Made by a program: the position numbers and the translations under genes | Shown: piece after piece, positions 10,835 through 27,037 of the stretch | Layout of the letters: the number at the start of each line of letters is the position of its first letter | Numbering within the stretch: position 1 is the first letter of the stretch | Sequence record: OR352954 | Length of the DNA: 64,000 bases | Source: Escherichia phage AV124 | Strand: one strand, 5' to 3' | The notes under the pieces: model-generated | The model's database searches: none | The model's input: the letters and a program-made list of their open reading frames with translations, nothing else | Told to the model about the DNA's origin: nothing

Positions 10835-10889
10835 AATGAGAATCATTATTATTTCGATTTCGAATTCAATTTCGAAATGAGAATCATTC
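10835..10889. repeat. two copies of palindrome AATGAGAATCATT flanking TTCGA-rich palindromic core
   Basis: AATGAGAATCATT at 10835-10847 and 10877-10889; related copies at 19711-19723 and 19744-19758. Confidence 0.6.
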
Positions 10890-11179
10890 CGCAAATATAA
10901 ATATTTTGTAAATTTATAAATAAAAGCTTGACGAGGGAAGAGAATCGTGTTTAGCAATACATACTCTTTGAGCATCATTATCATTTGCGACTAATTCCCA
11001 TAAACCCTTGCTACGCAAGGGATTGATAGATATTTTCGATAATAAAAACACTTGACACTTCAGATAAAATCATGCTCAAAAACAAGCCTTTTCTCATAAG
11101 ATACGATCATCATTCTAATGGTTTGTCAACCATTAAACACGAATTAATTTGATTAAACTGCTAATTGTTTACAGGGTTT

Positions 11180-11530
11180 ACTATCATCAGCGACACAATA
11201 ACACAATGCCCTTCGGGTTGTTTTCGCCACGGAAAACAATGTCCAGATTGACCAAAGGGGTTTTGTGAATCCCCTTTATCTGGACACAATAACACTAGGG
11301 CGATCAACGATAGTTGATCGGTGTTATCGTGGCGATGTGATAAAGTTTCATTGCTAATCATTACAGATGTAATGATAATATACTGTGATAATTTCGTCCT
11401 TGATCGTAGCGTCTACGAGCCACGATAACGCGAACGAGAATGCGATTTGTTCGCATTTGAGTTACCCTAGTGTTATTGTGTCGCTCGCTCCGCTCGCGCC
11501 ACTCCCCACGATTCGCGAACGAGAAATTTT
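11180..11530. repeat. nested inverted- and direct-repeat cluster (origin- or operator-like)
   Basis: GGACACAATAACACTAGGG (11283) vs reverse complement at 11464; GATCAAC-GATA-GTTGATC; GTTATCGTGG vs CCACGATAAC; CGAACGAGAA twice; several GC hairpins. Confidence 0.55.
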
Positions 11531-12142
11531 ATTGACAGAAAATGATTTCTATGCTCATAAAAAGCCAGTTCACACAATGAGTTAGATGAGGAAAGTTATC
11601 ATTATAGTGATTTATGCTCATATTCACTTCCAGTGCATAGAAATTCATGATTTATTCAGTTAATAACATGCGTTATTAATTAGGTGGGGTTGTGGGGTGA
11701 AAAGCCAGGACCGACACACAATTAAACGCAATATAAAGCGTTTTGAGCGTGGTTATCGGTTACCCTCATCATGGTATGTCTTGTGTTAGATCTCAATTAT
11801 GCACTTTTTTGCATAGCGGCGGGGCCGTGGTGTGGGTTGTTTATGGTGTGGATCTGCAAAGAGAAAAGCCAGGTAAAAACCTGGCCTTTGTGTGATTGTC
11901 TTATGACTGGCTAGCCATATTGTTTTAGATAGTTTACAGCGGAAATTATTGCTTGTGCTCGGCTGTACTCTTCGCCGTTCACACGATAGCGCCGCGCGCC
12001 TTTATGGCACTGGGTGATCATAACCTGGATTATTCCATCCATAACATAGAATGCTTTACTTACGAATAAAATCATCTGATACTTTGCAACCGTGATCCGT
12101 GGCGTATGTTATCGCGTCATCAATTTTTAACATGTCACAACC

Positions 12143-12355
12143 TCATTCATTGATTAGTTTAAATTCCGCTTCAGGGTGATAAAGATCAGCCATATAGCGC
12201 ATTTTGTAATAGAAAGATACTTCCACAATGTGAGGCGCTTCGATTTCTATTTGTGTGATGAGAACGCTACCCGGCTTAAATCCTGGGGCGATGTCCGGTA
12301 ATTCGATAATCATTCCGCCTTTTAAATCTTTCGCTTTTACAGTTCCCATGATCAT
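12143..12355 (-). CDS. hypothetical protein
   Basis: First ORF of leftward block; ATGA overlap with upstream gene. Confidence 0.45.
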   Translation of the reverse strand: MIMGTVKAKDLKGGMIIELPDIAPGFKPGSVLITQIEIEAPHIVEVSFYYKMRYMADLYHPEAEFKLINE

Positions 12356-12585
12356 TAGCCTTTTTTACGTTTCATTACTTTGATCGCTTTTATGCCTTTT
12401 TGTTCGAAAAATTCCGGGCTTCGCAATTGTGCGGCACTGCTACGGCTTTTTACCTTAGTAGACAATACACCATAATAGCGCCCGTCATCATACTGACCAA
12501 TAAAATAAAAATCGTTTACGCCATATTTTTCATCCCCTGCTTTCTGGATGATTTCGGATAACTTGTCAATACTAATATTAATCAT
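12355..12585 (-). CDS. hypothetical protein
   Basis: ORF in co-directional minus-strand array. Confidence 0.45.
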   Translation of the reverse strand: MINISIDKLSEIIQKAGDEKYGVNDFYFIGQYDDGRYYGVLSTKVKSRSSAAQLRSPEFFEQKGIKAIKVMKRKKG

Positions 12586-12633
12586 AATTGCTTTACCTCA
12601 AAGGATAGCGGGGCGGCTAGCGCCCCGGTTTGA

Positions 12634-12963
12634 TTATTTGTTAAGCTCTTTATATTCAGCGATCCAGCGGGTAAAAATCTCATACTGTTTTTGTGCTGCT
12701 TTCGCTGTTTTGTGAGAGATAACAGTTATATACCAGCAATTTCCTAAAACATAACCGGATGAATGATAAACCCACGGATATTTCGGATCGATCTCTTTCA
12801 GTTCTTTTTGACGTTCTGGGGACTCGCTCCAGACGTGAGAGACAAAATCAACGGCAGTATAACGGGGAACTTCAAGCGGGACACGCTGACCGAAAGCGTC
12901 AAACTTAAAATTGTGCGACTCTAAATGCTTGTCTAAAAAGGTGAAAAATTCTGATTTTGTCAT
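12634..12963 (-). CDS. hypothetical protein
   Basis: ORF in minus-strand array. Confidence 0.45.
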   Translation of the reverse strand: MTKSEFFTFLDKHLESHNFKFDAFGQRVPLEVPRYTAVDFVSHVWSESPERQKELKEIDPKYPWVYHSSGYVLGNCWYITVISHKTAKAAQKQYEIFTRWIAEYKELNK

Positions 12964-12969
12964 TTCCGT

Positions 12970-13137
12970 TTACCTCGTCAAGTTGTTTTCGTTTGTTTGC
13001 CCTACGAGATAAATAATAATATAAGCGGGGATCGCTGTAAATAGCTCTTTACGTATCTTTACATTACTGTCGTTGTTGAGAGTAATTCTCATTACCGGAA
13101 TAGCGGGCACCTCCGGTGGCTTTCCTCCGGTATCCAT
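12970..13137 (-). CDS. hypothetical small protein (start uncertain)
   Basis: Track ORF 12970..13242 trimmed to internal ATG; weak SD; hydrophobic C-terminus. Confidence 0.25.
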   Translation of the reverse strand: MDTGGKPPEVPAIPVMRITLNNDSNVKIRKELFTAIPAYIIIYLVGQTNENNLTR

Positions 13138-13210
13138 CGTTGCCGCTTCAAAAAAGAATAGCAAAAACCAGGACCGAAAGCAAGCCCTAGAATTGTAAAG
13201 ATTTTGCCTA

Positions 13211-13678
13211 TCATACCAGGCCGGATCGCTTCGCCTTTGCAATGTCTGAATATAATTTCCTGAAGTATGCCGGGCCTCGCTCGTTTACTCTCACATATTC
13301 ATCACGCGCCGCCAACTGGTGATCGTCGGGTAATAACCCATGATAACCACTGCTAACAACGGCAATCCGCTTTTTGTTGCAGTCATAGTAAACATATGAA
13401 CCATCGGCTAGATAAATTGTGCAGTTCTGCCGGATGTAGGGTATCAAATACGCGTTGCCCTGGTGCCGGATTTTGTAAAGCGCCATTTGTCCATTGTAGA
13501 TCCGGCGGACGTGATAAGGGTCATTGATTGCCTGGTGAATGTTTTCCTTCCAGGCCTGGCGAGCGTTGCCAACATTACGGATCAGCGCTTCCACCTCTGG
13601 GATCACGACGTTAGCACGGGCGGCGGCTTTTGCCTGGTCTGATAATTCATCGTAATAAAACATTCGTACACTAATCAT
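13211..13678 (-). CDS. hypothetical protein
   Basis: ORF in minus-strand array. Confidence 0.45.
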   Translation of the reverse strand: MISVRMFYYDELSDQAKAAARANVVIPEVEALIRNVGNARQAWKENIHQAINDPYHVRRIYNGQMALYKIRHQGNAYLIPYIRQNCTIYLADGSYVYYDCNKKRIAVVSSGYHGLLPDDHQLAARDEYVRVNERGPAYFRKLYSDIAKAKRSGLV

Positions 13679-13873
13679 TTTTTAATCCCCATGAAAGGAA
13701 AGCAAGCCAGATCGGCGGGGCGCAAGTGGTTAACACGTCGCCAGCCTTTTGGCGTTTCAACAAAAACGCGGTTTTCAATCCAGTGATAAATTTTACCAGA
13801 TCGCATATTGAGAAAACGTATCATTTGCGTTTATCCGTAAAAGTTGCCCCGGATCGCCGGGGCCTGGTGTACA

Positions 13874-14644
13874 TTATGCCACAATGGCGGGACGGTTTAC
13901 AACGGTTGTTTTTACGTCCTGATAGGTATCGTGTTTTTTAACGGTAGCCTTAAACTTAACAACCGCGCCAACCGGGCCGAACTCTTTTGATCCGATGTAT
14001 GTTACTAGGTCATCGCCCTGGCGGACTTTGATAATATAGTATGATGATTGATTCCATTCATCAATTTTGAGATAAGAGAAAACGATCTCACCCTCAAAAA
14101 CCAGGCGATCGCCAATGTTACCGATCCAATTGCTTTTTAAATCCTCGGCTTTACGCTCGGCGCGTTTCTGGTCACGGGCTGCAATGTAACCATGATCAAG
14201 AGCATAACCCAAACACGCCGCGCTTAGTGCTTCCATTACCGGGCCGTTATCTGGCTTGTTTGCCATATCAGCAAAAAATAAAACATAGGATTCTTTAACA
14301 TCGGCAAACGTTTTACCGCAATGCTTGCCAAAAGGAAAGCGCCCCGCTTCGATTTCTTCGATCCGGGCGGTATCGACGATCGACAATTTACCGCGACGTT
14401 GCCCCAGCTCAAAATCTGCGTAGCCTGCAAAAACTTGTTCAAAGTTTTCTGTGTTGGCGATCCGCGCGGTTACTCGATCAAAATATTCCTTTGCTTTAGT
14501 TTCTGCTTTTTGGGGATCGGTTGAAAGATTGCAGATGTAAGAATCTGCAAAAACGCCACCGCCAAAGTTACGGCGGCGCAATGTATACATTGCATTCAGC
14601 TTGCCGGAGTCGATGTAATAGGTAACGGTGATTTTAGTAGTCAT
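13874..14644 (-). CDS. hypothetical protein (FPFGKHCGKT motif)
   Basis: 256-aa ORF; hairpin CCCCGG-ATCG-CCGGGG downstream of stop. Confidence 0.5.
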   Translation of the reverse strand: MTTKITVTYYIDSGKLNAMYTLRRRNFGGGVFADSYICNLSTDPQKAETKAKEYFDRVTARIANTENFEQVFAGYADFELGQRRGKLSIVDTARIEEIEAGRFPFGKHCGKTFADVKESYVLFFADMANKPDNGPVMEALSAACLGYALDHGYIAARDQKRAERKAEDLKSNWIGNIGDRLVFEGEIVFSYLKIDEWNQSSYYIIKVRQGDDLVTYIGSKEFGPVGAVVKFKATVKKHDTYQDVKTTVVNRPAIVA

Positions 14645-14751
14645 TCTGTTTTACCTCGATTTGTGGGCCGTCGCATCATTGCCGCCCTATACATTAAATA
14701 TAATAAAAGTCGCTCACGTTTGCAAGCGACTTTTTAGATTAATTTTCTCAA

Positions 14752-15075
14752 TTAGTTAGCACGGAAAACATCGTTTACAATAGCAGTTGTAAACATCCAG
14801 ACCAGATCCGGGGTGGTTATCGGCAGGCTGTCAGCCTGTTTTATTGTTACTCCGCTTCTTTCAAGAGTGTAGGCGATAAAATGACGGTTTTCAAGTTTTC
14901 CACTATGTGATTGAATAGATTTTTCAGTACGGATCAGGACGGTTAAACGGTCCGCTTGTTCGCTGTCATTCTCATGACAAAACACTAACATGGTTTTTTC
15001 TCCCTGGCGATTAAAGTCACAATTAACATTATCGTTAACATTTTCCAGAAAGAAAAATTTGTTTGCCTTTTCCAT
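14752..15075 (-). CDS. hypothetical protein
   Basis: ORF in minus-strand array. Confidence 0.45.
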   Translation of the reverse strand: MEKANKFFFLENVNDNVNCDFNRQGEKTMLVFCHENDSEQADRLTVLIRTEKSIQSHSGKLENRHFIAYTLERSGVTIKQADSLPITTPDLVWMFTTAIVNDVFRAN

Positions 15076-15146
15076 ACTATTTTACCTTTTTGTTAGTGGG
15101 CCAATCTTGCCCGGTCCAAGTAATATAGCCTAACCGGGCCGGGTGA

Positions 15147-15443
15147 TCAATGATTATTTTCTTTTTCGGCGTACATCTGGATCAAGCTGGCTGCGTCGAT
15201 ATTGTCAACAAAAAACGAGGATACCGCCACCGCCGGATCACCGTCTACTGGTTCACCATCCGGCATAGGTTCGACTTCTGGCGATGGTATGCACGCCGGA
15301 TTAATCCAGCGCCCATAGCGCTGATAGTCAACGGCGACGATCTCGCAAGTCAATTGATCATCATAGCTTTCTACTACATAATCGCCACACTGTTTTAAGG
15401 CTAGCGCACTATAAAAACACACACCCGCGAATACTTCGAACAT
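15147..15443 (-). CDS. hypothetical acidic protein
   Basis: ORF in minus-strand array. Confidence 0.45.
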   Translation of the reverse strand: MFEVFAGVCFYSALALKQCGDYVVESYDDQLTCEIVAVDYQRYGRWINPACIPSPEVEPMPDGEPVDGDPAVAVSSFFVDNIDAASLIQMYAEKENNH

Positions 15444-15453
15444 GTTAACCGCC

Positions 15454-15696
15454 TTATTTTTTCAGAGTAATGATCGGGCGCTTGTCGCCCTCTTTGACGC
15501 CAGGATCTAACGTATCGCAGATCCCCACTTGCTCACCCTTTTTCAAAGTGTAGCTGTTTTCGTACACCTCGCAAGCTTGTTCGTCATCAAAAACTTTCTT
15601 TACAGTCCAATCACATTGTAATGACATTGAACTAACAGAAATGTGACAAGCTAATAAAATAAATCCGAACATGGTAGCCGCCTTAATGGGGCGCAA
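15454..15696 (-). CDS. small lipoprotein (predicted lipobox LLAC)
   Basis: N-terminus MRPIKAATMFGFILLAC: basic n-region, hydrophobic core, L-L-A-C lipobox; mature part about 63 aa. Confidence 0.5.
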   Translation of the reverse strand: MRPIKAATMFGFILLACHISVSSMSLQCDWTVKKVFDDEQACEVYENSYTLKKGEQVGICDTLDPGVKEGDKRPIITLKK

Positions 15697-15710
15697 GGCC
15701 CCGCTATTGA

Positions 15711-16034
15711 TTATTTGTTGATCTGGTTTGTCTGATTATAGATCCCATATTGAACACGGGACACGGTAACAGATTGAGGGAGTAAGCAACGAACACGATC
15801 CGCGCGGTTGTCATATTTTTTAATATGCGCCGGAGTATTGTTGCGGGTAAACTTAACACGCAAACGTAATTTATTTGGATCGCGGTCATCGATGCCGGTT
15901 ACCACACCGAAAGCGATTTGGCCATAGTTATGATAAACCATTTTACCCAGAAATTTTGATTCAAGATCGGCGATGTTAGATTTTACGTTTTGCATGTTGT
16001 TTACCTTTTTCAGAGTGGCGGTGAATTCCGCCAC
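15711..16034 (-). CDS. hypothetical protein
   Basis: ORF with SD-like AAAAAGG before ATG. Confidence 0.45.
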   Translation of the reverse strand: MAEFTATLKKVNNMQNVKSNIADLESKFLGKMVYHNYGQIAFGVVTGIDDRDPNKLRLRVKFTRNNTPAHIKKYDNRADRVRCLLPQSVTVSRVQYGIYNQTNQINK

Positions 16035-16295
16035 TGATTAAAGGATAGCATAACGCCGACAGGATGCAACAAATATTTTTAGAATTGTTGAGAACTGTTC
16101 TCATATGCAGTGATATGCATAGAAAATCGCTGTTATGCAATTAGTTTCAACTGGTTACTAAATTTGTGGCGTTTTGAGCGTGGCGCGGCTATCCGATACC
16201 CTCTAAAACGCCCTCAAATCGATTCTAAGCGCTTCAATCTGTAGCCCTGGTAAGTGCATTGCTACGCTGAGATCTCGCTAAATTCACTTTTTTGC

Positions 16296-16324
16296 ATAAA
16301 AAAGCCGGGGATAATTCCCCGGCC
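16296..16324 (-). terminator. rho-independent terminator (minus strand)
   Basis: GCCGGGG-AATTAT-CCCCGGC followed by TTTTTTAT on minus strand just after stop of 16328..16543. Confidence 0.6.
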
Positions 16325-16327
16325 TGG

Positions 16328-16543
16328 TTACTCACCTGTTACGGCGTATCGCTGCAAATTACGTTTACGATCGGCAAGGCGTTTATTTAACTTCGGGTCG
16401 TACTGGTCCGGCGACCATTGAACCGCGATCCGTTCCGGCTTATGCCGTTTATTGTTACGCTCTCGCCGCTCGTTAGTCTCACCAAAAGCAAGGCGATCGC
16501 GCTGGCTTGTCATCTTCTCAAAGTTGCGGCTTTTTGCTGTCAT
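16328..16543 (-). CDS. hypothetical highly basic small protein
   Basis: 71 aa rich in R/K/E (RRERNNKRHKPER); possible nucleic-acid binder. Confidence 0.45.
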   Translation of the reverse strand: MTAKSRNFEKMTSQRDRLAFGETNERRERNNKRHKPERIAVQWSPDQYDPKLNKRLADRKRNLQRYAVTGE

Positions 16544-16880
16544 GTTTTGATCCTCTGTGGTTGTATGTTTCCGCTCGCCATTCCGCGATCTGTTTTTTGC
16601 GATACTCGATCAGCTCTTCGATGTAGTCGAAAGATCCCTCTTTATGTACCAGGACCACGCCGCCCCGGTGTTTAATCTCACAAATCAGGCCGCTACCCTC
16701 CAAATCATTTAACGGCCCGGATCGCCTGGTGTGGTACTCCTCCCCCTGGAAGCAATATTCTATATAATGAAACATTGTTTTAACCCTGTACCAGTAGTAA
16801 AACCACTTCAGAACACGCCAGATCCTGACGTGAATTTTTGCATAATAACAAAATATGAGTAGAATCAAAAATTCTTTCAT
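16518..16880 (-). CDS. hypothetical protein
   Basis: Track ORF 16518..16952 trimmed to ATG adjacent to upstream stop. Confidence 0.35.
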   Translation of the reverse strand: MKEFLILLIFCYYAKIHVRIWRVLKWFYYWYRVKTMFHYIEYCFQGEEYHTRRSGPLNDLEGSGLICEIKHRGGVVLVHKEGSFDYIEELIEYRKKQIAEWRAETYNHRGSKHDSKKPQL

Positions 16881-16881
16881 A

Positions 16882-17277
16882 TTACGCCGCGCTGTTTTTA
16901 AATGGCTTATCCCATGATCCGAACTGTAGATCGATATAGTGACCAACATCAAAATAATCTGTCATCACGTCGCTATTGTTATAATTATCAGTGTCTAGCG
17001 CTTCAATGATTTTTTCAAGCGTTGCGGTAAACTCTTTATCACTCGAATAAGTATGAGCGTTATAATGGTTAACACTGATATATGTAAAGCCGTCCGGGTA
17101 TCCTTCTTTAACTGATTTATGATCCATTTTAGACACAAGATCAAACGGCGCGGATCGGATAGTGCAAACAATAGTTGAATAGTGACGGATCGCAAATGTT
17201 GCTTTCCAACCTTTGGGCAATACAGCTTTTACCGCTTCGACAATTTTCGCTTTCTTCTCTTTATTCATGTAGGCCAT
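16882..17277 (-). CDS. hypothetical protein
   Basis: ORF with SD AAAAGGTAAAC before ATG. Confidence 0.45.
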   Translation of the reverse strand: MAYMNKEKKAKIVEAVKAVLPKGWKATFAIRHYSTIVCTIRSAPFDLVSKMDHKSVKEGYPDGFTYISVNHYNAHTYSSDKEFTATLEKIIEALDTDNYNNSDVMTDYFDVGHYIDLQFGSWDKPFKNSAA

Positions 17278-17336
17278 TTTGTTTACCTTTTAGGTTATGC
17301 CGGGGACAATTCCCCGGCTTTAATCAGTATAGCGGT

Positions 17337-17849
17337 TTAAAGAATCTTTGCAACGTCTTTATAAGACCATGCAAAAAGAGAATTTTGCTTACCTGGTGCA
17401 ACGTCCGCCAGACGTCCAGCAAATCGGGCGCGGTTATGGGGGAACTCAAAGACTACCACGCGCCCGGATATCATTTCCACGCGATCACCGTTTTTCAGAA
17501 GTTTAATCCGGTCAATCAGTGCTTTATGCTCTTTTTTGTGTTTAACATGTTGACGACAAGCGGCGCGCCAATTAACGGAGAATTCATCTTGTTGCGTGGA
17601 TCGCTTAAGGAATTTTTCAGGACAATTGTAATAACACGGGCCGCAGGATTCATCCATATCTTTATAAAAAACCATACCATCTTTGCGGGAAAGGATTGTA
17701 ACACGAATGTAAAGACTTTCATCTCTCGCCCTTGCAAGCTGATAAACTTCATTGCCTACAATAGACGTTTCGATCACGCGGTTATCAGTCAGATAATTTT
17801 CAACAAATTTTTTGTTATTAAGATTAGAATAAATGCTAGTCCAGCCCAT
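17337..17849 (-). CDS. hypothetical protein
   Basis: ORF with SD GAGGTAAATAAA before ATG; downstream of consensus promoter. Confidence 0.5.
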   Translation of the reverse strand: MGWTSIYSNLNNKKFVENYLTDNRVIETSIVGNEVYQLARARDESLYIRVTILSRKDGMVFYKDMDESCGPCYYNCPEKFLKRSTQQDEFSVNWRAACRQHVKHKKEHKALIDRIKLLKNGDRVEMISGRVVVFEFPHNRARFAGRLADVAPGKQNSLFAWSYKDVAKIL

Positions 17850-17891
17850 TTTATTTACCTCGTTTAGTGTTTAATTTGTTGGTGCCTGGTA

Positions 17892-17921
17892 ATTATAGGC
17901 CCTTTCCGGGCCTGGTGTCAA
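17892..17921 (-). promoter_or_regulatory. sigma70 consensus promoter TTGACA-N18-TATAAT with hairpin-forming spacer
   Basis: Minus-strand read: TTGACA CCAGGCCCGGAAAGGGCC TATAAT; -35 overlaps stop of upstream gene. Confidence 0.5.
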
Positions 17922-18703
17922 ATGATACGTTCGAATTTATCGAATCTTTTTGCGGATCTGCCGTGAACGTCGATCACGACGTTGGCGCGTTTACCATCGC
18001 ATAAGCCGCAATCTAAGCAGCTAATGTTGTGAGTGGTATTAACGCAAGTGATCTCGCCCTCCAGGCGGCGCATATTGTGAGTTTTCACGCGGAAAGTTTT
18101 ATAACCCTTGCGCCATGCTGTGATCGCTTGTTTTTCCGTATCGGCTGAGATCTGGCAAATGGTAGCGATACGATGATCAAAATTCTTATGGTGGATCTGG
18201 TGAGTGTACCCCGTATTGCCTTGCGTATGGTTGACCATGTTTTGCCATACCTCAAAAGGGACCGCCGCCGGATCGCCGTAGGAACCTAAACGGATATAAC
18301 GCCCCGCAAAATGTACCAGATCGCGAGAATCAAGATCTTTATAATTGCCTTTTTTGTAAGACTTCCAGACTGACAGCGGGGCCTGGTGTAATGTCACATA
18401 ACAAGCGCCGTTTAAGCTGGTACGATGGGGACACATACCGCAAACAGATGAATCAAGTTTTTTAGCGCTCGCTTCCAGTGGGCTAACATCCTCACGCATG
18501 ATCCAGGTTTGAACCATATCGCCAGTCTTATCGTTAGCGGTTGACATTGTAGCAATGACCACGATCGGGGCCTTATCCAGGACTGACGGGCCTTTATATA
18601 ATACATAACCCTTTTTTGCTGTGGATTTTTTACCCGGTACACTATGCACGATCTCGGATTCAGAGTTGACAACCAGACCATTATTAAGTTTAAACGTAGA
18701 CAT
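17918..18703 (-). CDS. hypothetical protein
   Basis: 261-aa ORF; several Cys (CGMCPH, CLDCGLC). Confidence 0.5.
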   Translation of the reverse strand: MSTFKLNNGLVVNSESEIVHSVPGKKSTAKKGYVLYKGPSVLDKAPIVVIATMSTANDKTGDMVQTWIMREDVSPLEASAKKLDSSVCGMCPHRTSLNGACYVTLHQAPLSVWKSYKKGNYKDLDSRDLVHFAGRYIRLGSYGDPAAVPFEVWQNMVNHTQGNTGYTHQIHHKNFDHRIATICQISADTEKQAITAWRKGYKTFRVKTHNMRRLEGEITCVNTTHNISCLDCGLCDGKRANVVIDVHGRSAKRFDKFERII

Positions 18704-18795
18704 TGCTTTTTACCTCGATTTATCGCGGCCCTTGCCGCCTGAGAAAACACTTTAGCAAGGGCGCTAACTGAAAGCAAGCGCCCAGGGTAAAATAT

Positions 18796-18963
18796 TTTAT
18801 TTAGCTAGTGATAAGGTTTTTCCGTGGTTGATCCCAGGGATAACCCATTGCCCGGCGCCATCTTTAACAGGCTGACGTAAACGCGCCGCCGTGGTTACCT
18901 TGCTGTTAACATTACGGGCAAAAGCGCGGGCCTGGTCACGGGTAGTAAAAGAAATATTTTTCA
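18796..18963 (-). CDS. hypothetical small protein (55 aa)
   Basis: ATG after GAAGAGG on minus strand; below track cut-off. Confidence 0.3.
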
Positions 18964-19252
18964 TGTTGTAGCCTCTTCAGTAGATGTAATTTTGTTTTGC
19001 CCTGGATTTTGGAGATCCTCACCTTTCCGGGCCAGATTGAATCCTCATCGCTTGCGCTTTACTCCACGCCCCACTATTTCAACCGGGGGCCTTGGATTCA
19101 CCCCGCCCCGGTGAGATGAATATTAAGTGATAGCGATCCCCGCGTCAATCCCCTGGATGAAAATAAATTAAAAATATTTTTGTTCGTGTGGGCTTGCGCC
19201 CCGGCCTGGTTAGTGTACTATATAAGGACTCCCACAAATAAAGGTAAACGAA

Positions 19253-19438
19253 ATGGAAAACGCAAAAGTGATAACGAGTGAAACAATGGTTACCCTTTCC
19301 ACCTGGGAGACGGAAAGCGCAGCGCCCCAGGTTAGGATCGTGCCTTTACCCTTCGCGTTGAAAATGTATAATGCAGGATTTACCAGGGTGAGAATTGTTG
19401 CGGAAAATGGGGAAGTGATCGCGGACTCCTGGGAGTAA
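19253..19438 (+). CDS. hypothetical small protein (plus strand, within minus block)
   Basis: ATG after AAAGGTAAACGAA; promoter-like TTGCGC-N16-TACTAT upstream. Confidence 0.3.
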   Translation: MENAKVITSETMVTLSTWETESAAPQVRIVPLPFALKMYNAGFTRVRIVAENGEVIADSWE

Positions 19439-19818
19439 AAAATATTTTATCACGGGGCTTGCAAACGGCCCCGACCTGGGTTATATTTATCAGACAGGAG
19501 AAGAGACGCCACCCCCACGGCGGAAAGGCGGGGCTAACATACCAGGCGCGGCGATCTGGTTGGAAGGTGGATCGCCGGTAGCTCGCCTTAAGCCTGTTTG
19601 TAAAGAATTGTAAAGACGATTGCAACCGGGGGTAGGATATACTATATTATACACATAGCGGGAACATTGAAACCGGAGTACAAAACACCGGGGGTGCCTA
19701 TCATTCAGCAAATGAGAATGATTACCATTCAAATAACTAAATAAGAATGCTTCTCATTCAACAAAAAATTTAAATATTGACTTCTGATTTTTCGTGTGAG
19801 ATACTGAGCGATACCCCT

Positions 19819-20024
19819 AAAAAATTTTTTCGCGTAAGAAAACAAATACGATCTGGAAATTGAGATCTCGATCGAGAACCGGGCCGAAAAATTTTTTCTA
19901 GAGAGAAAACAATTACGATCTCGATTTTGAAAAACCGATCGAGAACCCGGTTGATACAGAGAAAAATTTTTTGATAGTGAGAGCAAATACGTTTTTGAAA
20001 ACGAAAAGTCGATCGAGAACCCAG
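19819..20024. repeat. three tandem imperfect direct repeats of about 70-75 bp
   Basis: Each unit has AAAAATTTTTT, GAGAAAACAA(T)TACG and CGATCGAGAACC; units start near 19819, 19887, 19962. Confidence 0.7.
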
Positions 20025-20297
20025 AGTTTGCTACCTGAAAATTTGAGTTATCTTTTTCGCTTATTTGAGATAAATGTCCAATCTTGATGCCAAGATACCT
20101 ATAGCAATCATACACTTGTGCATCATTTTTCGACATAGCTCCCACAAAGGTTTGAGATAATCTACTCCCAAAACTCTTGATTTAAAAATTTGCAGGGAAG
20201 ATGAAATCCGTTTCAAAAACGATTTTGAAAACCATTTCGAATTTTAAAATATCTTTGGGATATTAAATATCATACAAATATCCCACAGTTTTGAATC

Positions 20298-21134
20298 TTA
20301 TCTGGGATTGAAAATATCCTTCCATTTAATAATATCATAGGTTGTGCCTGTAGAAATTTCATACATTTTAATCTCATCTGGGGTCGGATTACAAATGTCA
20401 ATGAAAAATGTGCTCAATACAGAAATCAGGAACCGTTCTGTCTTTCCTGGGACTGTGTAAACAATACGCATATCACCGGGAATAGGAGAAATGGCCAAGG
20501 AGGTAGGGCCATTCATAAGTGTAACGGTATTATCAGCAATCTTGATACGACCATCGACACCATACACCAAATCATGGACAGAAGAATAATGTGCAAGCAC
20601 CTCTACTACCGGGTTACCGACAAGGTTCACGAGGTAATCAAGATACAGGTCTCGCCATCCACGATTCTGCATCATGTACCGTATATGGGAACCTCCATCA
20701 AACATCTCGCCCAGTTGCTCTGCGATCCAGGCAACACCATTTGCAATGTCTTCTCTGTTCCAAGTGTTGTCGATATCTAAAATATCCTTGCTGAACTTGT
20801 TCAAACGGCGCATAGCATTGAGTACATACTCACCTCTTTCAACGAAGGCACGTTCAGTGTCTTTTGCATAATCGAGAAGCCCTTCAACCTCTGATCCTGT
20901 GGCGTATTGCTTAAGGTCATCAAGCACACTTTCCACACTGGCCTTGGCCTGATTGAAAGTATACTCATCAGTCTCGTCAGTAGAGAATTCTACACCACCA
21001 AGGGCGTATGTAGCATCATCATAGAGCTTTTTGAGATCATGACGCATATCCGGGAAGTCATAACCAACCTTGTTATGAGGGATAAGTTCAAGAGTGTTTA
21101 AAATAGTAGTCATCGTATATCGTCCTGTAATCAA
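20298..21134 (-). CDS. hypothetical protein
   Basis: 278-aa ORF; no motif. Confidence 0.5.
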   Translation of the reverse strand: MITGRYTMTTILNTLELIPHNKVGYDFPDMRHDLKKLYDDATYALGGVEFSTDETDEYTFNQAKASVESVLDDLKQYATGSEVEGLLDYAKDTERAFVERGEYVLNAMRRLNKFSKDILDIDNTWNREDIANGVAWIAEQLGEMFDGGSHIRYMMQNRGWRDLYLDYLVNLVGNPVVEVLAHYSSVHDLVYGVDGRIKIADNTVTLMNGPTSLAISPIPGDMRIVYTVPGKTERFLISVLSTFFIDICNPTPDEIKMYEISTGTTYDIIKWKDIFNPR

Positions 21135-21394
21135 TCCTGAGGCGTTTTATTAAAAGGCAGTACGTTTGCCTATCTTACATGCTAAAAACCCCGCTACGGC
21201 GTTCCTACGCATCATACGGGGTATTCTAGCATCTGTTTTTCAGTCACGTTTCATTTGGTAGCGCATATACGCCATATTCATTCTGTGTTTGACGTTGTAA
21301 GTTACCGGAAGATGACCAAATACAAAGTAACAGACATCATACAGGATCTCCCAGAACTTAAAAACCAAATATTTAGACCGTTTTTCTAAGCTCA

Positions 21395-21805
21395 TCATCT
21401 CACCTCCACAGGTTCAATAAAATAGTTCTGGCCTTGTTTTGTTTGACAAAATGAACCAATGTACCAGACACCGCCGCCGCCATGCTGGGTGATACGGAGA
21501 ATATCATACCCACCAAGCTTTTCTGGTCTTTTGACACTTGCTGGTGCATCGACTATCTTCATCAACAAATCAAACCCAGACATTGACATCAGGAACTTGT
21601 TCCCGTCTTGATCGACCATTTCAATATTCGCAGCAGAACGACCACGACTGAATCCAGTATACTGGAGTTTCAGCTCTCGAATTTCATGACGATCGGAAAC
21701 ATCCACCTTATCTTCCATCTTCCAGTCATGGGCGTACCCGGTATACCAAGCATTACTGCCCTTCAGGTATAGTGCGGGGTATCCGCGCTTTCCTAACTTA
21801 GCCAT
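21395..21805 (-). CDS. hypothetical protein
   Basis: Track ORF trimmed to ATG with GAGGG SD overlapping upstream stop. Confidence 0.45.
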   Translation of the reverse strand: MAKLGKRGYPALYLKGSNAWYTGYAHDWKMEDKVDVSDRHEIRELKLQYTGFSRGRSAANIEMVDQDGNKFLMSMSGFDLLMKIVDAPASVKRPEKLGGYDILRITQHGGGGVWYIGSFCQTKQGQNYFIEPVEVR

Positions 21806-22148
21806 GCTTACCCTCGTTCTTTTCAATACCAAGGATCATACCCTGGAGTTGCTGTTTCATTGGAATCAGGATTGGCATATCGTCAATCCAGACATCTGGT
21901 GTCCAGCGATTTTCTGCACACACCTGTGCCTTTTGTACACCACTACAGTAGATTATCTTGATATCCAGCTCATTAGCCCAGAACTCAATGTCCGAGTTAT
22001 TATCAGTCGGATATCGGAAGGTAACGAAACGAACATCAAAGTCACCCTCGATGACCATCAAATCAACAATGTGATGCCACATGGTTGGATTTAACGTGAA
22101 AGTATCATCGAAGTCAAGTGCTATTTTCTTTTTCTCGAATGGTTTCAC
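21798..22148 (-). CDS. hypothetical protein
   Basis: ORF in minus-strand array. Confidence 0.45.
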   Translation of the reverse strand: MKPFEKKKIALDFDDTFTLNPTMWHHIVDLMVIEGDFDVRFVTFRYPTDNNSDIEFWANELDIKIIYCSGVQKAQVCAENRWTPDVWIDDMPILIPMKQQLQGMILGIEKNEGKHG

Positions 22149-22531
22149 TCAGCCTCCCACTTGACTACAATCCCATGTGCTGACAAATACTTTTCAACAC
22201 TGACCTTGCATTCCAGCCGACACGCATTATGTATTGCTGCCAAATCATCATTGCCGAATTCACCATCAACGTAATCAGATGGTAATCGGCGGGATGCTAG
22301 ATTCACGGTGACGGTGCGGGACTCCAACTGAGAAATCCGCTGCTGCACCTTCTCCAGCGCCTCTACCAGCGCGAGAACGTTGACAGGGTTAGCAAGACTA
22401 ATAAGATTTATCTTTGACTTATGAACGGTACAAATCTGATGGCCTTCCTCAAACCATTCACTGTCGTAATTTTTAATAACGCGCACTGCTGCCGCTTTCA
22501 GGCTCTGCGCCAGTTCGTTGATATCAATCAT
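22145..22531 (-). CDS. hypothetical protein
   Basis: Track ORF trimmed to ATG preceded by AAAAAGGA. Confidence 0.45.
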   Translation of the reverse strand: MIDINELAQSLKAAAVRVIKNYDSEWFEEGHQICTVHKSKINLISLANPVNVLALVEALEKVQQRISQLESRTVTVNLASRRLPSDYVDGEFGNDDLAAIHNACRLECKVSVEKYLSAHGIVVKWEAE

Positions 22532-23174
22532 GCTGAGAATCCTTTTTATCTTCTTTTGTTTTGGCGGCTGCATCCAACTCTTCAGTATATTTCTTGATTT
22601 GAGCATCAAGATACTTAATGGTGCTATCAGCCAGTTGTTGTGTACGTGGTGACTCAACCACATTCTGACCTACATACGCTGCCAGCATCTTATAGGCCGT
22701 CTCTTTCTGCGGCATAAAGTTAGCGTACAGGATACCTAGGAAACATATAACCATGCCAAAGACTGCGATCTTACGTGGACCTTTGGTAACATCCTTTACC
22801 ACAACAGGTGTTGTTGATTGGCCTTCCTTCCGGGTTACTTTGTAGATTGTGGACTGCTTAATATCGTTGCTGGAGACCCTTCCATTCGGCAAGCGAACTC
22901 GAAGCGTATTATCACTGTTCCATACCGTAACGATTTCAATCGTATCCCCGGCCTTACATCCATTCCAGTCTTGATTAAGAATCAGGTTTTCACCTTCGAA
23001 GAACTGATACCCTAAGGCTGTACCATTCTTCTCAAGATCTTCATAAATCTTCTGACCGAAATAGCAACCGGCGTATGCGAGAGCAGAGATAAGCATCAGA
23101 GCAACCCAACCACCATAATTACCGTCTGTAGTCAGAACATCAATTACATAAATCAGAAAAGGCCATGAACCCAT
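22524..23174 (-). CDS. hypothetical membrane protein (two TM segments)
   Basis: Hydrophobic stretches near N-terminus and mid-protein; Lys-rich C-terminus. Confidence 0.5.
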   Translation of the reverse strand: MGSWPFLIYVIDVLTTDGNYGGWVALMLISALAYAGCYFGQKIYEDLEKNGTALGYQFFEGENLILNQDWNGCKAGDTIEIVTVWNSDNTLRVRLPNGRVSSNDIKQSTIYKVTRKEGQSTTPVVVKDVTKGPRKIAVFGMVICFLGILYANFMPQKETAYKMLAAYVGQNVVESPRTQQLADSTIKYLDAQIKKYTEELDAAAKTKEDKKDSQHD

Positions 23175-23199
23175 TTTGTAATCTCCTCTTAGGATAACT

Positions 23200-23460
23200 T
23201 TAATTAAGTGTTAAATTTCCAACAGTTTCAATGAAGCCGAAGGGCATAGAGAATACCTTCACCATATAAATCTTGTCCTTACCATCTTCATAGTAAGGCA
23301 CAACTACAACATCATCAGCTCCCAGAGGAAGCATAGTCATAATCATACCAGAATCTACAACGTATTCAAGCACAGCTTCTTTGGTGGCAGGAATTTCTTT
23401 CTCTGTTTGTTTGCTTTCCAACAGGCCACCACGGTGTTGACGAATACGGATCGTTTTCAT
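23200..23460 (-). CDS. hypothetical protein
   Basis: ORF in minus-strand array. Confidence 0.45.
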   Translation of the reverse strand: MKTIRIRQHRGGLLESKQTEKEIPATKEAVLEYVVDSGMIMTMLPLGADDVVVVPYYEDGKDKIYMVKVFSMPFGFIETVGNLTLN

Positions 23461-23777
23461 TTGTTGTCGGCCTCGCGCCGCCCCCAGTTAAGTCGTTCAT
23501 AAGATTCACTGTCGCCCATGCCTCCATCACATAAGCGAACAAGTTCGCACTTCCACACACATCTAACACCCGTAAACGGGTTAGCTCATGGCTAATCCAC
23601 TTGTGGATGACTGAAGTGATGAATCACTTCCTCTTGAAACTAACTATACACTAACTAAACCATAGATCAAGATCTTTTTATAAAGATCTATGTTTTATGT
23701 TTTTAAGATCTTATGTGTATTATTTTATATATGTATTCATGTGCAAAATTTGCATGACACGAGACGCAAAATTTGCA
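23461..23777. promoter_or_regulatory. operator-like palindromes in intergenic region
   Basis: 32-bp near-perfect palindrome CATAGATCAAGATCTTTTTATAAAGATCTATG (23661-23692); direct repeat GCAAAATTTGCAT at 23743 and 23766. Confidence 0.4.
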
Positions 23778-24056
23778 TCACAAGACGGTGTACTCATACG
23801 TACTCATCCCTCTGCGTTCTGTAGATAGATACCCTAGTGCCACGAGGTTTTTTATGGATGTACTGATTGACCTTTCAGACACACCCGTAGCTTCACTAAT
23901 CGTTTTATAACTAGCAAAGTATTTCTTCCCTTTTGTCTCTAAGTATCCTGCCTTGTACTTTATGTGGAGCAGGACACGAAGATCTGTGCATGACAGGTTC
24001 TTATCATGCAGCTCTTTTTCGTCACAAGCTACCCACTTCTCACTCTTTTTTGGCAT
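23778..24056 (-). CDS. winged-helix DNA-binding protein (putative transcriptional regulator)
   Basis: ASYKTISEATGVSERSISTSIKNLVALGYL is a typical HTH recognition pattern; start trimmed to ATG after GGAG. Confidence 0.45.
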   Translation of the reverse strand: MPKKSEKWVACDEKELHDKNLSCTDLRVLLHIKYKAGYLETKGKKYFASYKTISEATGVSERSISTSIKNLVALGYLSTERRGMSTYEYTVL

Positions 24057-24450
24057 CCAAGTATTTCTCCAAATGAGTGAGTACAACCCCTTGGGCATAC
24101 TCTTGAGATGCATCATTGTGGTGAAGAACAGCCAGATCACATCCAAGTTTGTGCAAACTCCTCTCGAATGGAGACAAGTGTGTCATCATAACTTCGACCA
24201 GACTAAGCTCTTCTTCTGTGATGTGGAGGGGATCATCCGTGAAATCCCTGGAGATGAGAATCTCTCTCTCACCTCCTTCTCCGTGACCATAGACCTCGAC
24301 AATCCTCCTGTTACAGAAAATTTCGTACTGATAGCCGTTCCAATCTTGACCGTCTTGGGCTTCAAAGTTCACAATGAGGCAACAACCAAGCCCCAACAAG
24401 AGTACCTGGAAATCCAAATTGTGAACAATTTTTTTATTTAAAGTGTTCAT
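24040..24450 (-). CDS. hypothetical acidic protein
   Basis: ORF in minus-strand array. Confidence 0.4.
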   Translation of the reverse strand: MNTLNKKIVHNLDFQVLLLGLGCCLIVNFEAQDGQDWNGYQYEIFCNRRIVEVYGHGEGGEREILISRDFTDDPLHITEEELSLVEVMMTHLSPFERSLHKLGCDLAVLHHNDASQEYAQGVVLTHLEKYLDAKKE

Positions 24451-25873
24451 CTAAGTCCACAGCTTTTCCAAATGGTGGAATCCAACCCTTGCGCCCACCG
24501 CAGATAACCCAGAGAGTGTTGTACTTACGCCCCCAGCTTGAGCCACGATGTCTCAGGTCCTCTATGTAACCATCTGTGAAGATTATAACCTCTTTTGCCT
24601 TAGGAATAAACTCATCGATGTACTCAAAAGCACATGCAGCAGTTGTCCCACCAGTCGATGTAACTCTGTAATCCAGAATTTCCTTTATGTTATCCTGTGT
24701 GTACACGTTGACGTTGCCAACTTGGGTTGACCAACAGAACAATGTGATACGGAAACATTGGTACAGGGTGCTCAAAGCGATTATCTCATTGAAGATACGT
24801 GTCATTGTTTGACGAGAGATAGAACCTGAAACGTCAAAACCGATTACAATATCAACAGTCTCTGTTCTTTTTCTGCCAGGCATAACCATGAACTGTTTCT
24901 TAGTTAGAGCGCCGTGATCACGAAGGACTTTTGTCATTCCTCCTGATCGACGACCTAAGACCCGATAAGTACGGTCTGATTTAACACGAGAAATCATTCG
25001 CTGCTTAATGATTTGCAGGTAATTAATCTTCGGTTTACCTTTTTGTGCGATTAATTCTCTGGCTTCTTTTGGCCCTTCACCACCTGCGGCTTTCATAGCA
25101 GCGTCAATCATGTCCTCAGACCAAGACATATCCTCATCTTCCTGATCAGCAGACTTCTGTGGGTGTGGGTCCGTATACCCCAGGATGTCAAGGTCTTTAT
25201 CATAATCCCCTATGTGCGCTCCCAGCGGCTTACCTTCACCGTCACCAATCTCTTCCGGTAGTAGAGCATAAATCTCTTCAGCCGTTTTTCCCTCATATTG
25301 GTAATCGCAATAACAGTAAGCAAGGAAACCAAATTCTTTTGACTTATCAAACACTTGTCGATGAGTGAACCATTTCAAACTCTCGGCTTTCTGGCCCAAC
25401 TCCTTGACTAGGTCAGTATTGATATAGTGATCAGCGGCGATGTTGAAACGTTTGCGATCAAATGTTTTCCCACGAGACATGTGGTCGTTGGTGACATGGC
25501 GGACCTCATGCATCATGATGAATACAATTTCTTTCATGGTCTTTTGACGATAAAATACATTGATGTACTCTTTGTAATCATCTTTTTGCTGTTGTGTCAT
25601 CATCGGATGCTTGTCAATACGAGCAAAGACTTTTTTCTTGCGATCAGCAGGCATACCCATAATGAACTCTGGGTTAAAGTATAGATTGCGATGATCAGTT
25701 GCTGCGGTTGGAAGCCATGCACAGTCAACTATCAGCGGCATACCGCTTAATAATGTCCCATAGAATGGTCGATTAGTAAGTAAAGCGATGCGGGCAGACT
25801 GAACTCTCTTCAGTGCTTCATCAGCCAGTTCCATAATGCTTTCTTTTTCATCAGTATACATTCTTATCTCCAA
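24434..25873 (-). CDS. vWA domain protein with N-terminal HExxH metallopeptidase-like domain
   Basis: HExxH motif (MMHEVRH) in N-terminal half; MIDAS-like DVSGSIS in C-terminal half. Confidence 0.6.
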   Translation of the reverse strand: MEIRMYTDEKESIMELADEALKRVQSARIALLTNRPFYGTLLSGMPLIVDCAWLPTAATDHRNLYFNPEFIMGMPADRKKKVFARIDKHPMMTQQQKDDYKEYINVFYRQKTMKEIVFIMMHEVRHVTNDHMSRGKTFDRKRFNIAADHYINTDLVKELGQKAESLKWFTHRQVFDKSKEFGFLAYCYCDYQYEGKTAEEIYALLPEEIGDGEGKPLGAHIGDYDKDLDILGYTDPHPQKSADQEDEDMSWSEDMIDAAMKAAGGEGPKEARELIAQKGKPKINYLQIIKQRMISRVKSDRTYRVLGRRSGGMTKVLRDHGALTKKQFMVMPGRKRTETVDIVIGFDVSGSISRQTMTRIFNEIIALSTLYQCFRITLFCWSTQVGNVNVYTQDNIKEILDYRVTSTGGTTAACAFEYIDEFIPKAKEVIIFTDGYIEDLRHRGSSWGRKYNTLWVICGGRKGWIPPFGKAVDLDEHFK

Positions 25874-25910: not shown

Positions 25911-26171
25911 TTAATTCATCACCCTTTGCAATGCAATTTGGGGTAAAAATTCATCTATCCCCTCAACCCTGAAACCCCACGCTAATTGTGGACCAGGCGC
26001 TCCCGGAAGGTGAGGAACAGCAAACAAGACGATCCCATCAATAGCTCCGCGAATCGCGTTCTCTGTGAAAGTCTCTACCAGATCCCCGAAATTAAGACCC
26101 GGCCTGAAGCCAGCATTCAGCATTTTTTGCTCTGGCGCGGATGCAGGCCTGCCCAAGATATCTTCGTACAT
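25911..26171 (-). CDS. hypothetical protein
   Basis: ORF in minus-strand array. Confidence 0.4.
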   Translation of the reverse strand: MYEDILGRPASAPEQKMLNAGFRPGLNFGDLVETFTENAIRGAIDGIVLFAVPHLPGAPGPQLAWGFRVEGIDEFLPQIALQRVMN

Positions 26172-27037
26172 TACACCACCTTGTTGAGCATTGCTGCAAC
26201 TTTTGGCAGGCTCAGGCCCGTCTGGATCATCAGTTGGGTCATCGCAGTTTCCATTTTCTTGGAGACAATGATGAAATTATCTTTGGCAAAGCCAATGTTC
26301 AGATCCAGAATCAGAATAGATTTCGGTTCTTCAGTTAATTTTTCACCAGATAAGGCACAGGTGTTGCGAATGTATCGTGCCTTAAATTGCGAATAGGTGA
26401 CCGATACAGACATTCCAGCCTCGTGGAAGGTGTTGCAGTAACGGGCATACGCCAATGCAACAGAGACGTCCTCAGGCAACTTCTGGGCCTCTTTCTGAGC
26501 ACTTGTCTCTTCCGCCGCAGGTTTTTGGTTGTGAACATGTTCTTCGGCATTATCCATAGCGTTCTGCATTGTCTCTTCAGTATTCATTTCGTTCTCCTGT
26601 TGTGGGATATATTTGGTTTTCAGTTTTTCAAGGTGGTCTTTGGACATGTTCAACATCATGGCCTTTACTATTTCGCGATCTAAAGGATCTTGAATCAGTA
26701 TAGATGTTGTCTTGTCAACTAAACGGTCCTTAAGTTGGTTTGCGCGAAGCATAACCACACAGACGTTTCCCCGGACATACCCTTTCGAGTCATCGATTCT
26801 CTCTATAGACGGATACCTTGGGTTAGCTTCCTCACCATCATTCGCGATGTTGGTACTGAAAGGTAGCCCCGTGTAATCACAAGAGCCGTGGCCCAAAAGC
26901 TTGAATCCGAGCATACGCATATCTTGCATTGTTAAATCACAGTCAAGGCCCCGTTTTCGAGCATTCAACTTCTTATGCTTCAAACGATTCCTCAACTTTT
27001 CCACTTCTTCAGGTGTAAACTCTTGTAATACAGACAT
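26171..27037 (-). CDS. HNH endonuclease-like protein
   Basis: CDYTGLPF...PSIERIDDSKGYVRGNVCVVMLRANQLK matches phage HNH nuclease core; SD AAGGAG. Confidence 0.5.
   Translation of the reverse strand: MSVLQEFTPEEVEKLRNRLKHKKLNARKRGLDCDLTMQDMRMLGFKLLGHGSCDYTGLPFSTNIANDGEEANPRYPSIERIDDSKGYVRGNVCVVMLRANQLKDRLVDKTTSILIQDPLDREIVKAMMLNMSKDHLEKLKTKYIPQQENEMNTEETMQNAMDNAEEHVHNQKPAAEETSAQKEAQKLPEDVSVALAYARYCNTFHEAGMSVSVTYSQFKARYIRNTCALSGEKLTEEPKSILILDLNIGFAKDNFIIVSKKMETAMTQLMIQTGLSLPKVAAMLNKVV

Follow-up and report, generated by a model that had tools for sequence, protein, structure and literature searches.

Three bipartite repeats of fixed geometry in a conserved non-coding island of Escherichia phage AV124 and its relatives

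The 64,000-nt stretch of Escherichia phage AV124 DNA that we analyzed (sequence record OR352954; one strand, read 5' to 3', hereafter the window) carries, at positions 19819-20024, an array of three imperfect direct repeats. Comparison with related phages reveals that the object conserved in this array is a primary-sequence, bipartite site of fixed geometry, present three times over, as is characteristic of sites that one common factor recognizes. We tentatively favor, with rather less than even confidence, a reading in which a lineage-specific factor recognizes the array as three bipartite sites on DNA, in a manner coupled to transcription, and in which the sites are most likely situated in a replication origin or an early control region. 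The repeats had first been picked out from the letters of the window alone (the original prediction); beyond that, we find a single conserved promoter, P4, reading into the array and a wider conserved non-coding island around it. The region can now be defined as a deeply conserved module composed of P4, three 36-bp sites set in a 142-bp frame, shared inverted repeats and at least one probable small RNA. Both subfamilies concerned, the Vequintavirinae and the Stephanstirmvirinae (rV5-like and phi92-like phages, respectively), are widely used in therapy and biocontrol.

The three units and their boxes

The three direct repeats are real. Sequence reading and repeat finders agree on units at 19819-19886, 19887-19960 and 19961-20024, and a repeat finder returned a single family with three copies of 64 nt (19820-19883, 19887-19950 and 19961-20024), with starts 67 and 74 nt apart and 100, 80 and 69% identity relative to the first copy. 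Tandem Repeats Finder, the check that had originally been proposed, also detects the repeat (period 67, 80% matches, score 172) but covers only the first 1.9 copies, at 19820-19947; the third copy, being more diverged, escapes it. Each unit had been described as containing three blocks in the same order, and two of these indeed recur in exact form in all three, AAAAATTTTTT at 19820, 19887 and 19962, and the 12-mer CGATCGAGAACC at 19869, 19936 and 20010. The middle block is genuine as well and keeps its place in the order, but its conserved part is shorter than claimed, consisting only of AATACG or ATTACG (at 19845, 19912 and 19986), always exactly 18 nt ahead of CGATCGAG. The core of a unit is therefore 36 bp long, that is, box A (AATACG), 18 nt of spacer (N18) and box B (CGATCGAGAMCC), and the units are organized as follows.

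19819-19886, plus strand: unit 1, with A6T6 (19819-19830), box A AATACG (19845-19850), an 18-nt spacer, box B CGATCGAGAACC (19869-19880) and a GC-rich linker
19887-19960, plus strand: unit 2, with A5T6 (19887-19897), box A ATTACG (19912-19917), an 18-nt spacer, box B (19936-19947) and a linker
19961-20024, plus strand: unit 3, with A5T6 (19962-19972), box A AATACG (19986-19991), an 18-nt spacer and box B (20010-20021)

The array is confined to this locus. Elsewhere in the 64 kb, CGATCGAGAACC has no match on either strand with up to one mismatch (0.20 expected), and only 1 of 100 shuffles reached three matches. A second copy of the array in the genome was considered and discarded, the two to three places per record returned by blastn probably being shifted registers of one and the same array. 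We likewise set aside a cluster of Dam sites (GATC): the six sites in 206 bp tie with the window maximum, which is equalled near 18.1 kb, GATC is absent from the Henunavirus boxes, and the clustering is a by-product of the CGATCG box. Helically phased A-tract curvature was not found in the array, where power at 10-12 bp is average.

As originally argued, the repeats are not CRISPR, since the units share only 69-80% identity, the would-be "spacers" are homologous and conserved from one genus to another, and there are always three units. The array also proves to be non-coding, as had been suspected. The open reading frame (ORF) that crosses it, 19729..20145 on the minus strand, exists but is not a conserved gene. 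A stop-free minus-strand frame does span the array in every genome (15 of 15); in most, however, two such frames are open simultaneously, which is a composition effect, and the phase of box B is inconsistent among units and phages (2,1,2 in the window, 1,1,2 in KB57, 2,0,1 in an IMG/VR relative and different again in other genera), shifting between 98%-identical phages because of 1-nt indels in the A/T tracts. A protein-coding repeat was rejected on the grounds that the reading frame is conserved neither among relatives nor among copies. The ORF is thus not conserved as a protein, and the repeats are conserved in relatives (see below), the reverse of both outcomes that the original prediction had set against itself.

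Its suggestion of a repeated promoter or enhancer module finds no support. One sigma70-like match, weak at 9 of 12 positions, occurs in unit 3 (TTGATA-16-GATAGT, 19951-19978), but the scan found none on either strand of units 1 and 2 and none on the minus strand, and the site is absent in Seunavirus and Certrevirus, so that tandem sigma70 promoters were rejected. Moreover, motifs of a promoter class would be expected to recur, but within the 64 kb the boxes are confined to the array. A neutral, recent duplication is excluded by the conservation of the array across eight genera with a fixed copy number. Jointly, per-unit promoters or an enhancer module, a repetitive protein encoded by ORF 19729..20145 and a neutral duplication are very improbable explanations.

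Conservation of the array among related phages

The window belongs to the genus Mydovirus; it is ~95% identical to Klebsiella phages of this genus such as KB57, KpS11 and KPP-1, which are rV5-like myoviruses of the Vequintavirinae, and the array with its flanks is recognizable in other genera at 72-79% nucleotide identity, the surrounding gene order being kept. Arrays were taken from Mydovirus, Seunavirus (PVP-SE1, 4MG, EC152, EspYZU15), Avunavirus (Av-05), Certrevirus (CR3, CR9, F2M1E, phiTE), Henunavirus (pEa_SNUABM_55) and Vequintavirus (AlexBoehm), as well as from IMG/VR contigs. The comparison of copy number that had been proposed gives a simple answer, namely exactly three units in every Vequintavirinae array examined, across these six genera and the contigs. 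In the Stephanstirmvirinae phage phi92, three repeats of a different motif occupy the same position, spaced 75 and 67 bp apart, and in ESCO5 two clear copies of 72 nt, separated by 138 bp, flank one that is more degenerate. A fixed copy number and span, retained even where the motif has been replaced as in phi92, is unusual for repeat arrays and points to a structural constraint.

The geometry of the site is strict. There is not one indel in the 36-bp core of 59 units from 20 arrays, and invariant or near-invariant positions are distributed along the entire 36 bp. The distance from unit 1 to unit 3, determined for 18 arrays, is 139-145 bp and mostly 141-143 bp, with inner spacings that vary (63+78, 67+74 to 76, 71+74, 74+65 and 75+67). 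The spacer follows only a loose pattern, T-rich and then GAAAA-like, and the A5T6 tract is dispensable, being missing in Certrevirus and partly missing in Vequintavirus.

Box sequences differ between lineages in a concerted manner. The boxes read AATCCA ... CTCTCAAGTACC in Henunavirus and AATCCR ... AGATCGAGTACT in Vequintavirus, Certrevirus has the box variant GAGACCC, and within one genome the two boxes are altered in concert in all three units. Box identity is 0.74-1.0 within a genome, 0.61-0.74 when Henunavirus or Vequintavirus is compared with the other genera and 0.67 between Henunavirus and Vequintavirus. The spacers diverge alike within genomes (0.52-0.69) and between genomes (0.57-0.70), and their best matches between genera do not follow the order of the units, suggestive of an exchange between these. 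Since phages sharing one host have different boxes, the recognizing factor is probably encoded by the phage.

A search of 5,426 complete E. coli genomes found no similar sequence, and among plasmids there was a single match, 63 bp long with 79% identity and limited to the inverted-repeat part, in a 137.6-kb E. coli record that we suspect to be a phage genome. A host or plasmid origin of the sequence was rejected for these reasons. In the literature that we searched, the repeats are not described and the box sequences appear in no relevant context. We class the array as one of a known kind, with recognition sites repeated beside a promoter and AT-rich DNA, whose long bipartite core, fixed number and fixed span are atypical.

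Possible DNA sites, or possible modules of an RNA

A promoter scan identified the following site directly ahead of the array.

19777-19805, plus strand: promoter P4, of sigma70 type (TTGACT-17-GATACT) with a TGn extended -10

Of the four rightward promoters in the island, P4 comes last, and its predicted start near 19812 means that it would read into unit 1. Alignments show P4 to be conserved in four genera (Mydovirus, Seunavirus, Avunavirus and Henunavirus), where the -10 element lies ~37-40 nt ahead of box A of unit 1; in Certrevirus, a promoter-like site lies nearer unit 1. The array and the AT-rich tail that follows it are both inside the least stable 600 bp of the window (19734-20333; -1.226 versus a mean of -1.351, standard deviation 0.033), where the GC content is 0.30-0.36 versus 0.447 overall.

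In the reading that we favor, the array would be a cis-acting DNA element whose three sites are recognized by one sequence-specific factor, probably phage-encoded. The sites, fixed in a frame of ~142 bp from first to third, would lie in the first 215 bp transcribed from P4 and in the most easily melted DNA. RNA polymerase coming from P4 would open or prime the AT-rich DNA, and the factor on its three sites would assemble an initiation complex. Both the binding of a protein to the boxes as double-stranded DNA and the purpose of replication initiation are inferences on our part. Support comes from the indel-free 36-bp core, the presence of three units throughout and the preserved span of 139-145 bp; from boxes that change together, form no stem above controls and are confined to one locus in 64 kb; and from the conserved P4, the location in the least stable 600 bp and the lack of a terminator in 10 genomes. 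An origin, in particular, would fit with what is published for rV5, which has a T7-gp4-like primase-helicase, in which skew analysis located no origin and whose map shows an unexplained "non-coding" box (PMC3606486). If an origin is indeed present, it would provide a handle for phage engineering, for building replicons and for reading replication-based defence phenotypes.

Transcription-activated origins offer the closest layout. The primary origin of T7 consists of the tandem promoters 1.1A and 1.1B followed by an AT-rich region, oriF and oriG of T4 combine a promoter with an unwinding element, and oriE of T4 has a promoter, short iterons and RepEB. As in these origins, a promoter leads straight into easily melted AT-rich DNA, here from P4 into the least stable DNA of the window, at a locus that occurs once in the genome, a few per cent in from the left end; oriE, too, joins a promoter to direct repeats, and the primase-helicase of rV5-like phages resembles T7 gp4 (PMC3606486). 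Unlike in T7 and T4, the promoter is of the host sigma70 type, the 36-bp bipartite cores lie 63-78 bp apart and always number three, and GC skew gives no support to the proposed role of origin.

The original prediction had likened the repeats to iterons, and this likeness, taken to mean repeated sites for one factor, is the best supported of its readings, as indicated by the fixed 18-bp gap and the co-changing boxes. Theta-type iterons, such as the O sites of the lambda origin or those of plasmids P1, R6K, RK2 and pSC101, are usually 17-22 bp long, close-packed, helically phased and variable in number, and they sit in or beside the gene of their initiator. The array resembles them in being made of direct repeats of one recognition sequence, unique to the locus and beside an AT-rich unwinding region, with boxes that are homogenized within a replicon and diverge between replicons. 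As iterons, however, the units would be atypical, with 36-bp cores, unphased spacings of 63-78 bp, a fixed number of three, a nearby winged-helix protein that does not co-vary with them, no cognate initiator found and no conserved DnaA boxes.

Several findings weigh against recognition sites in an origin. A cognate binding factor was not found, the sole DNA-binding candidate nearby being the HTH_36 ORF, which fails (see below). Units follow one another at 63-78 bp, distances that do not amount to whole helical turns (10.5), and the A/T tracts are unphased. In 10 genomes, there are no conserved DnaA boxes, IHF sites or oriC-type 13-mers; DnaA boxes occur as sporadic single matches in three of them, at positions that are not conserved. 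The step in GC skew at the island, from about -0.03 on its left to -0.13 on its right with leftward transcription in both blocks, has a sign opposite to the one that a bidirectional origin would add, and the skew, dominated by transcription, gives no support for an origin, a conclusion also reached for rV5 (PMC3606486). Finally, a promoter placed exactly upstream and a purine-rich plus strand (0.587) would suit an RNA product equally well.

Such a product, a non-coding RNA made from P4 with the array as its body, is the main rival explanation, which we nevertheless hold to be doubtful. Each of its three largely unstructured, A-rich modules would take up a single protein copy, so that the RNA would serve as a sponge or decoy; one possible target, by analogy with pseudo-ToxI of phage phiTE, is a factor of host defence or one that binds RNA. 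In agreement with this, P4 is conserved at its set distance from box A of unit 1 in four genera, and all units share its direction. The purine fraction of the plus strand (0.587 in the array, 0.575-0.59 over 19253-20024) is like that of the adjacent rightward units and unlike that of the flanking leftward genes (0.46-0.47), and the island holds two other probable small-RNA units with promoters of their own. A repeat RNA decoy has a precedent in a Vequintavirinae phage (PMC3475682), and boxes that change together would suit an RNA-binding factor as well as a DNA-binding one. An RNA decoy, like an entry signal (see below), would represent a new kind of phage-host interface.

Other findings speak against an RNA product. 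RNAalifold predicted 0 pairs on the units, with no conserved structure or covariation, and three candidate in-unit stems, evaluated on 30 distinct cores, were no better than shuffle controls. A stem between box A and box B was rejected since a script count gave only 0-1 of 5 pairs in Henunavirus, where both boxes have changed and the changes are non-complementary. Folding of the whole array is not decisive, being mildly better than shuffles on the plus strand (z -2.4), because of the palindromic CGATCG, and less so on the minus strand (z -0.9). The array matches no Rfam family at E values up to 1, and no intrinsic terminator follows it in the 10 genomes, which would be expected if the act of transcription counts more than a discrete RNA product. 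A strict, indel-free spacing with a conserved 142-bp span would also be unusual for an unstructured RNA. As a separate matter, a Rho-loading bias on the minus-strand RNA was considered and rejected (C/G 1.17).

The phiTE precedent differs from the array in several respects. Both are non-coding, promoter-proximal tandem repeats with a conserved 36-nt core in a Vequintavirinae genome (PMC3475682). However, ToxI consists of head-to-tail 36-mers without linkers, which form pseudoknots and vary in copy number from 1.5 to 5.5 (PMC3475682), whereas the units of the array are 63-78 nt long with linkers, fixed in number and without conserved structure. Moreover, pseudo-ToxI is found at a different phiTE locus (106.7 kb), and phiTE also has its own copy of the array. 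Considering the linkered period of 63-78 nt, the lack of conserved pairs and the lack of an Rfam match, a pseudo-ToxI or type III antitoxin array was rejected.

The surrounding island, its neighbors and the genome ends

The array had been placed in a 1.3-kb region with little convincing coding sequence. This is largely correct: 18965-20297 (1333 bp), inside a 16-kb block of leftward early-type genes, is gene-free except for one genuine small plus-strand gene, the DUF7170 ORF. This ORF lies on the strand opposite to all its neighbors and is present in most genera, yet it is unannotated in the Certrevirus island. Apart from the array and P4, the island comprises the following features.

19148-19120, minus strand: leftward promoter-like site (promoter scan)
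~19194-19221, plus strand: promoter P1, read by eye, serving the DUF7170 ORF
19253-19438, plus strand: DUF7170 ORF, 61 aa (Pfam DUF7170, E 9e-26; PHROG 4653)
19459-19487, plus strand: promoter P2 (promoter scan)
19488-19590, plus strand: ~95-nt GC-rich element behind P2, near-invariant across Vequintavirinae
19620-19648, plus strand: promoter P3, TTGCAA-17-TATATT (promoter scan)
19711-19730 and 19740-19759, no strand assigned: two copies of the inverted repeat AATGAGAATGATTNTCATTC, just upstream of P4 (repeat finder)
20025-20297, no strand assigned: AT-rich non-coding tail, 31.5% GC, with small repeat sets
20064 and 20151, with a degenerate copy at 20042, no strand assigned: TTTGAGATAA, in the AT-rich tail
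20203-20241, no strand assigned: 12-nt periodic GAAAACCATTTC, 3.2 copies, then three copies of AAATATC
20253-20264/20277-20288, no strand assigned: hairpin after the AAATATC copies

The element behind P2 is probably an unannotated small RNA gene. It is 84-89% identical in phi92-like and ESCO5-like phages, which belong to another subfamily, and this far exceeds the conservation of the neighboring genes; RNAalifold finds 16 pairs, one of which covaries (A-U / G-C, 5:5), and a search of Rfam gave no family match. Over 19620-19700 on the plus strand, P3 is followed by another conserved stretch of ~60 nt (acatagcggg...caccgggggtgcc), which is also present in the Vequintavirus AlexBoehm, a phage without the 19488-19590 element.

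The inverted repeats AATGAGAATGATTNTCATTC are probably operators. Their third and last copy in the 64 kb is at 10834-10854, within the terminal repeat, and the sequence may therefore represent an operator common to the genome end and the island; other genera have two to five copies. As a separate observation, the center of the repeat, AATGATTATCATT, is also that of the E. coli Fur box, with the copies in the window more than three mismatches away from the 19-mer consensus.

GC skew changes abruptly at the island, from ~-0.01 to -0.05 (11500-18900) to -0.13 to -0.155 (20300-24500), and both blocks are leftward. A possible cause of this step is that the two blocks differ in expression class or in origin. 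The step also bears on an operator or insulator function, in which a phage early protein bound to the three sites would block or time transcription, namely the rightward read-out from P4 and/or the leftward read-through from 20.3-27 kb into the 11.4-19 kb block, the island dividing two temporal classes of early genes. We consider this unlikely. It would be in line with the position of the island between two leftward blocks of differing skew, with the leftward promoter-like site at 19148-19120, with the hairpin at 20253-20288, which probably terminates the leftward gene 20298-21134 upstream, and with operator-like inverted repeats both beside P4 and in the terminal repeat; co-changing boxes, too, are expected of sites read by a factor. 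However, three operators spread over +30 to +210 past the start would be an unusual layout for repression, no regulator was identified, and such a function would account neither for the conserved span of 142 bp nor for the location of the array in the least stable DNA.

The physical ends of the genome fall within the window, where rightward genes switch to leftward ones. KPP-1 has a 514-bp direct terminal repeat according to PhageTerm (PMC9862379), the homologue of which is found at 10438-10951 in the window with 94% identity. The record of phage DP has the same 514 bp annotated as a repeat region, with a second match elsewhere, and that of KP12 begins there. The array thus lies 9.4 kb (6.5%) inside the left end, and the corresponding distance in other genera is ~9-12 kb. 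Although the EC152 record starts and the PQ002170 record ends inside the array, and one is labelled "attR", the array was rejected as a physical end or packaging site because the terminal repeat maps 9 kb away; these record breaks are probably assembly breaks at repeats.

This position recalls the injection stop signal of phage T5, a conserved untranslated region of 1.2-1.7 kb with ordered direct repeats, including two of 66 bp, which is situated at 7.9% of the genome from the left and is more conserved than the neighboring genes (Davison, bioRxiv 10.1101/866236). By analogy, the array could be a pause or anchor point for DNA entry ~9-12 kb from the leading end, if the left end is taken as leading. 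The leftmost host-takeover genes would be expressed first, and the four rightward host-type promoters would then reel in the remaining ~130 kb, as A1-A3 do in T7. Such a role, which we regard as quite improbable, would add an independent example, the second one, of DNA delivered in stages, and would do so for a large family of myoviruses with therapeutic use. To our knowledge, genome-entry control modules of this kind are not known outside T5 and T7.

The likeness extends to the conserved, untranslated and repeat-rich nature of the T5 signal (bioRxiv 10.1101/866236) and to the distance from the left end, which is 6.5-8.5% for the array when that direction of entry is assumed and is fixed by the terminal repeat, on which DP and KP12 agree. 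In addition, P1-P4 point away from the left end inside 16 kb of leftward genes, without a terminator. In contrast, the T5 signal is part of a terminal repeat of 10 kb and includes DnaA boxes in pairs as well as inverted repeats of 131 bp, whereas the array has neither clustered DnaA boxes nor large inverted repeats and lies outside a terminal repeat of 514 bp that is 9 kb distant. Furthermore, two-step or transcription-dependent entry has never been reported for rV5-like phages, and the similar distance from the end in different genera may merely mirror conserved gene order.

Among the neighboring genes, the HTH_36 ORF was considered as the source of the factor that would bind the array.

23778-24146, minus strand: winged-helix HTH_36 ORF, labelled "replication initiation protein" in relatives

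It exists as two alleles that are 47% identical among Mydoviruses whose arrays are 98-99% identical, and tblastn detects it only in Mydovirus and Seunavirus; it therefore fails on both co-variation and co-occurrence and was rejected as the cognate factor, although an initiator that is encoded farther away or not recognizable as one may exist. Its allele in the window is ~91% identical to that of Salmonella phage PVP-SE1, and the distribution of alleles looks like mosaic exchange.

Further along, a 288-aa protein (26171-27037, minus strand) matches an HNH endonuclease (PHROG 3118) and the Srd anti-sigma/sigma70-decoy families (PHROGs 1400 and 4592); its gene heads the leftward early block, beside a divergent promoter region near 27.05 kb. 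The 278-aa protein encoded next to the island belongs to PHROG 12959 (function not assigned), has eight close homologues and no Pfam, NCBIfam or PDB match, and its AlphaFold model is unusable (pLDDT 40). In some relatives, the stretch that separates the array from the next leftward gene downstream has received HNH endonuclease genes, as in Raoultella phage Ro1 and in PVP-SE1 (gp204), and this gap is therefore a landing site for homing endonucleases.

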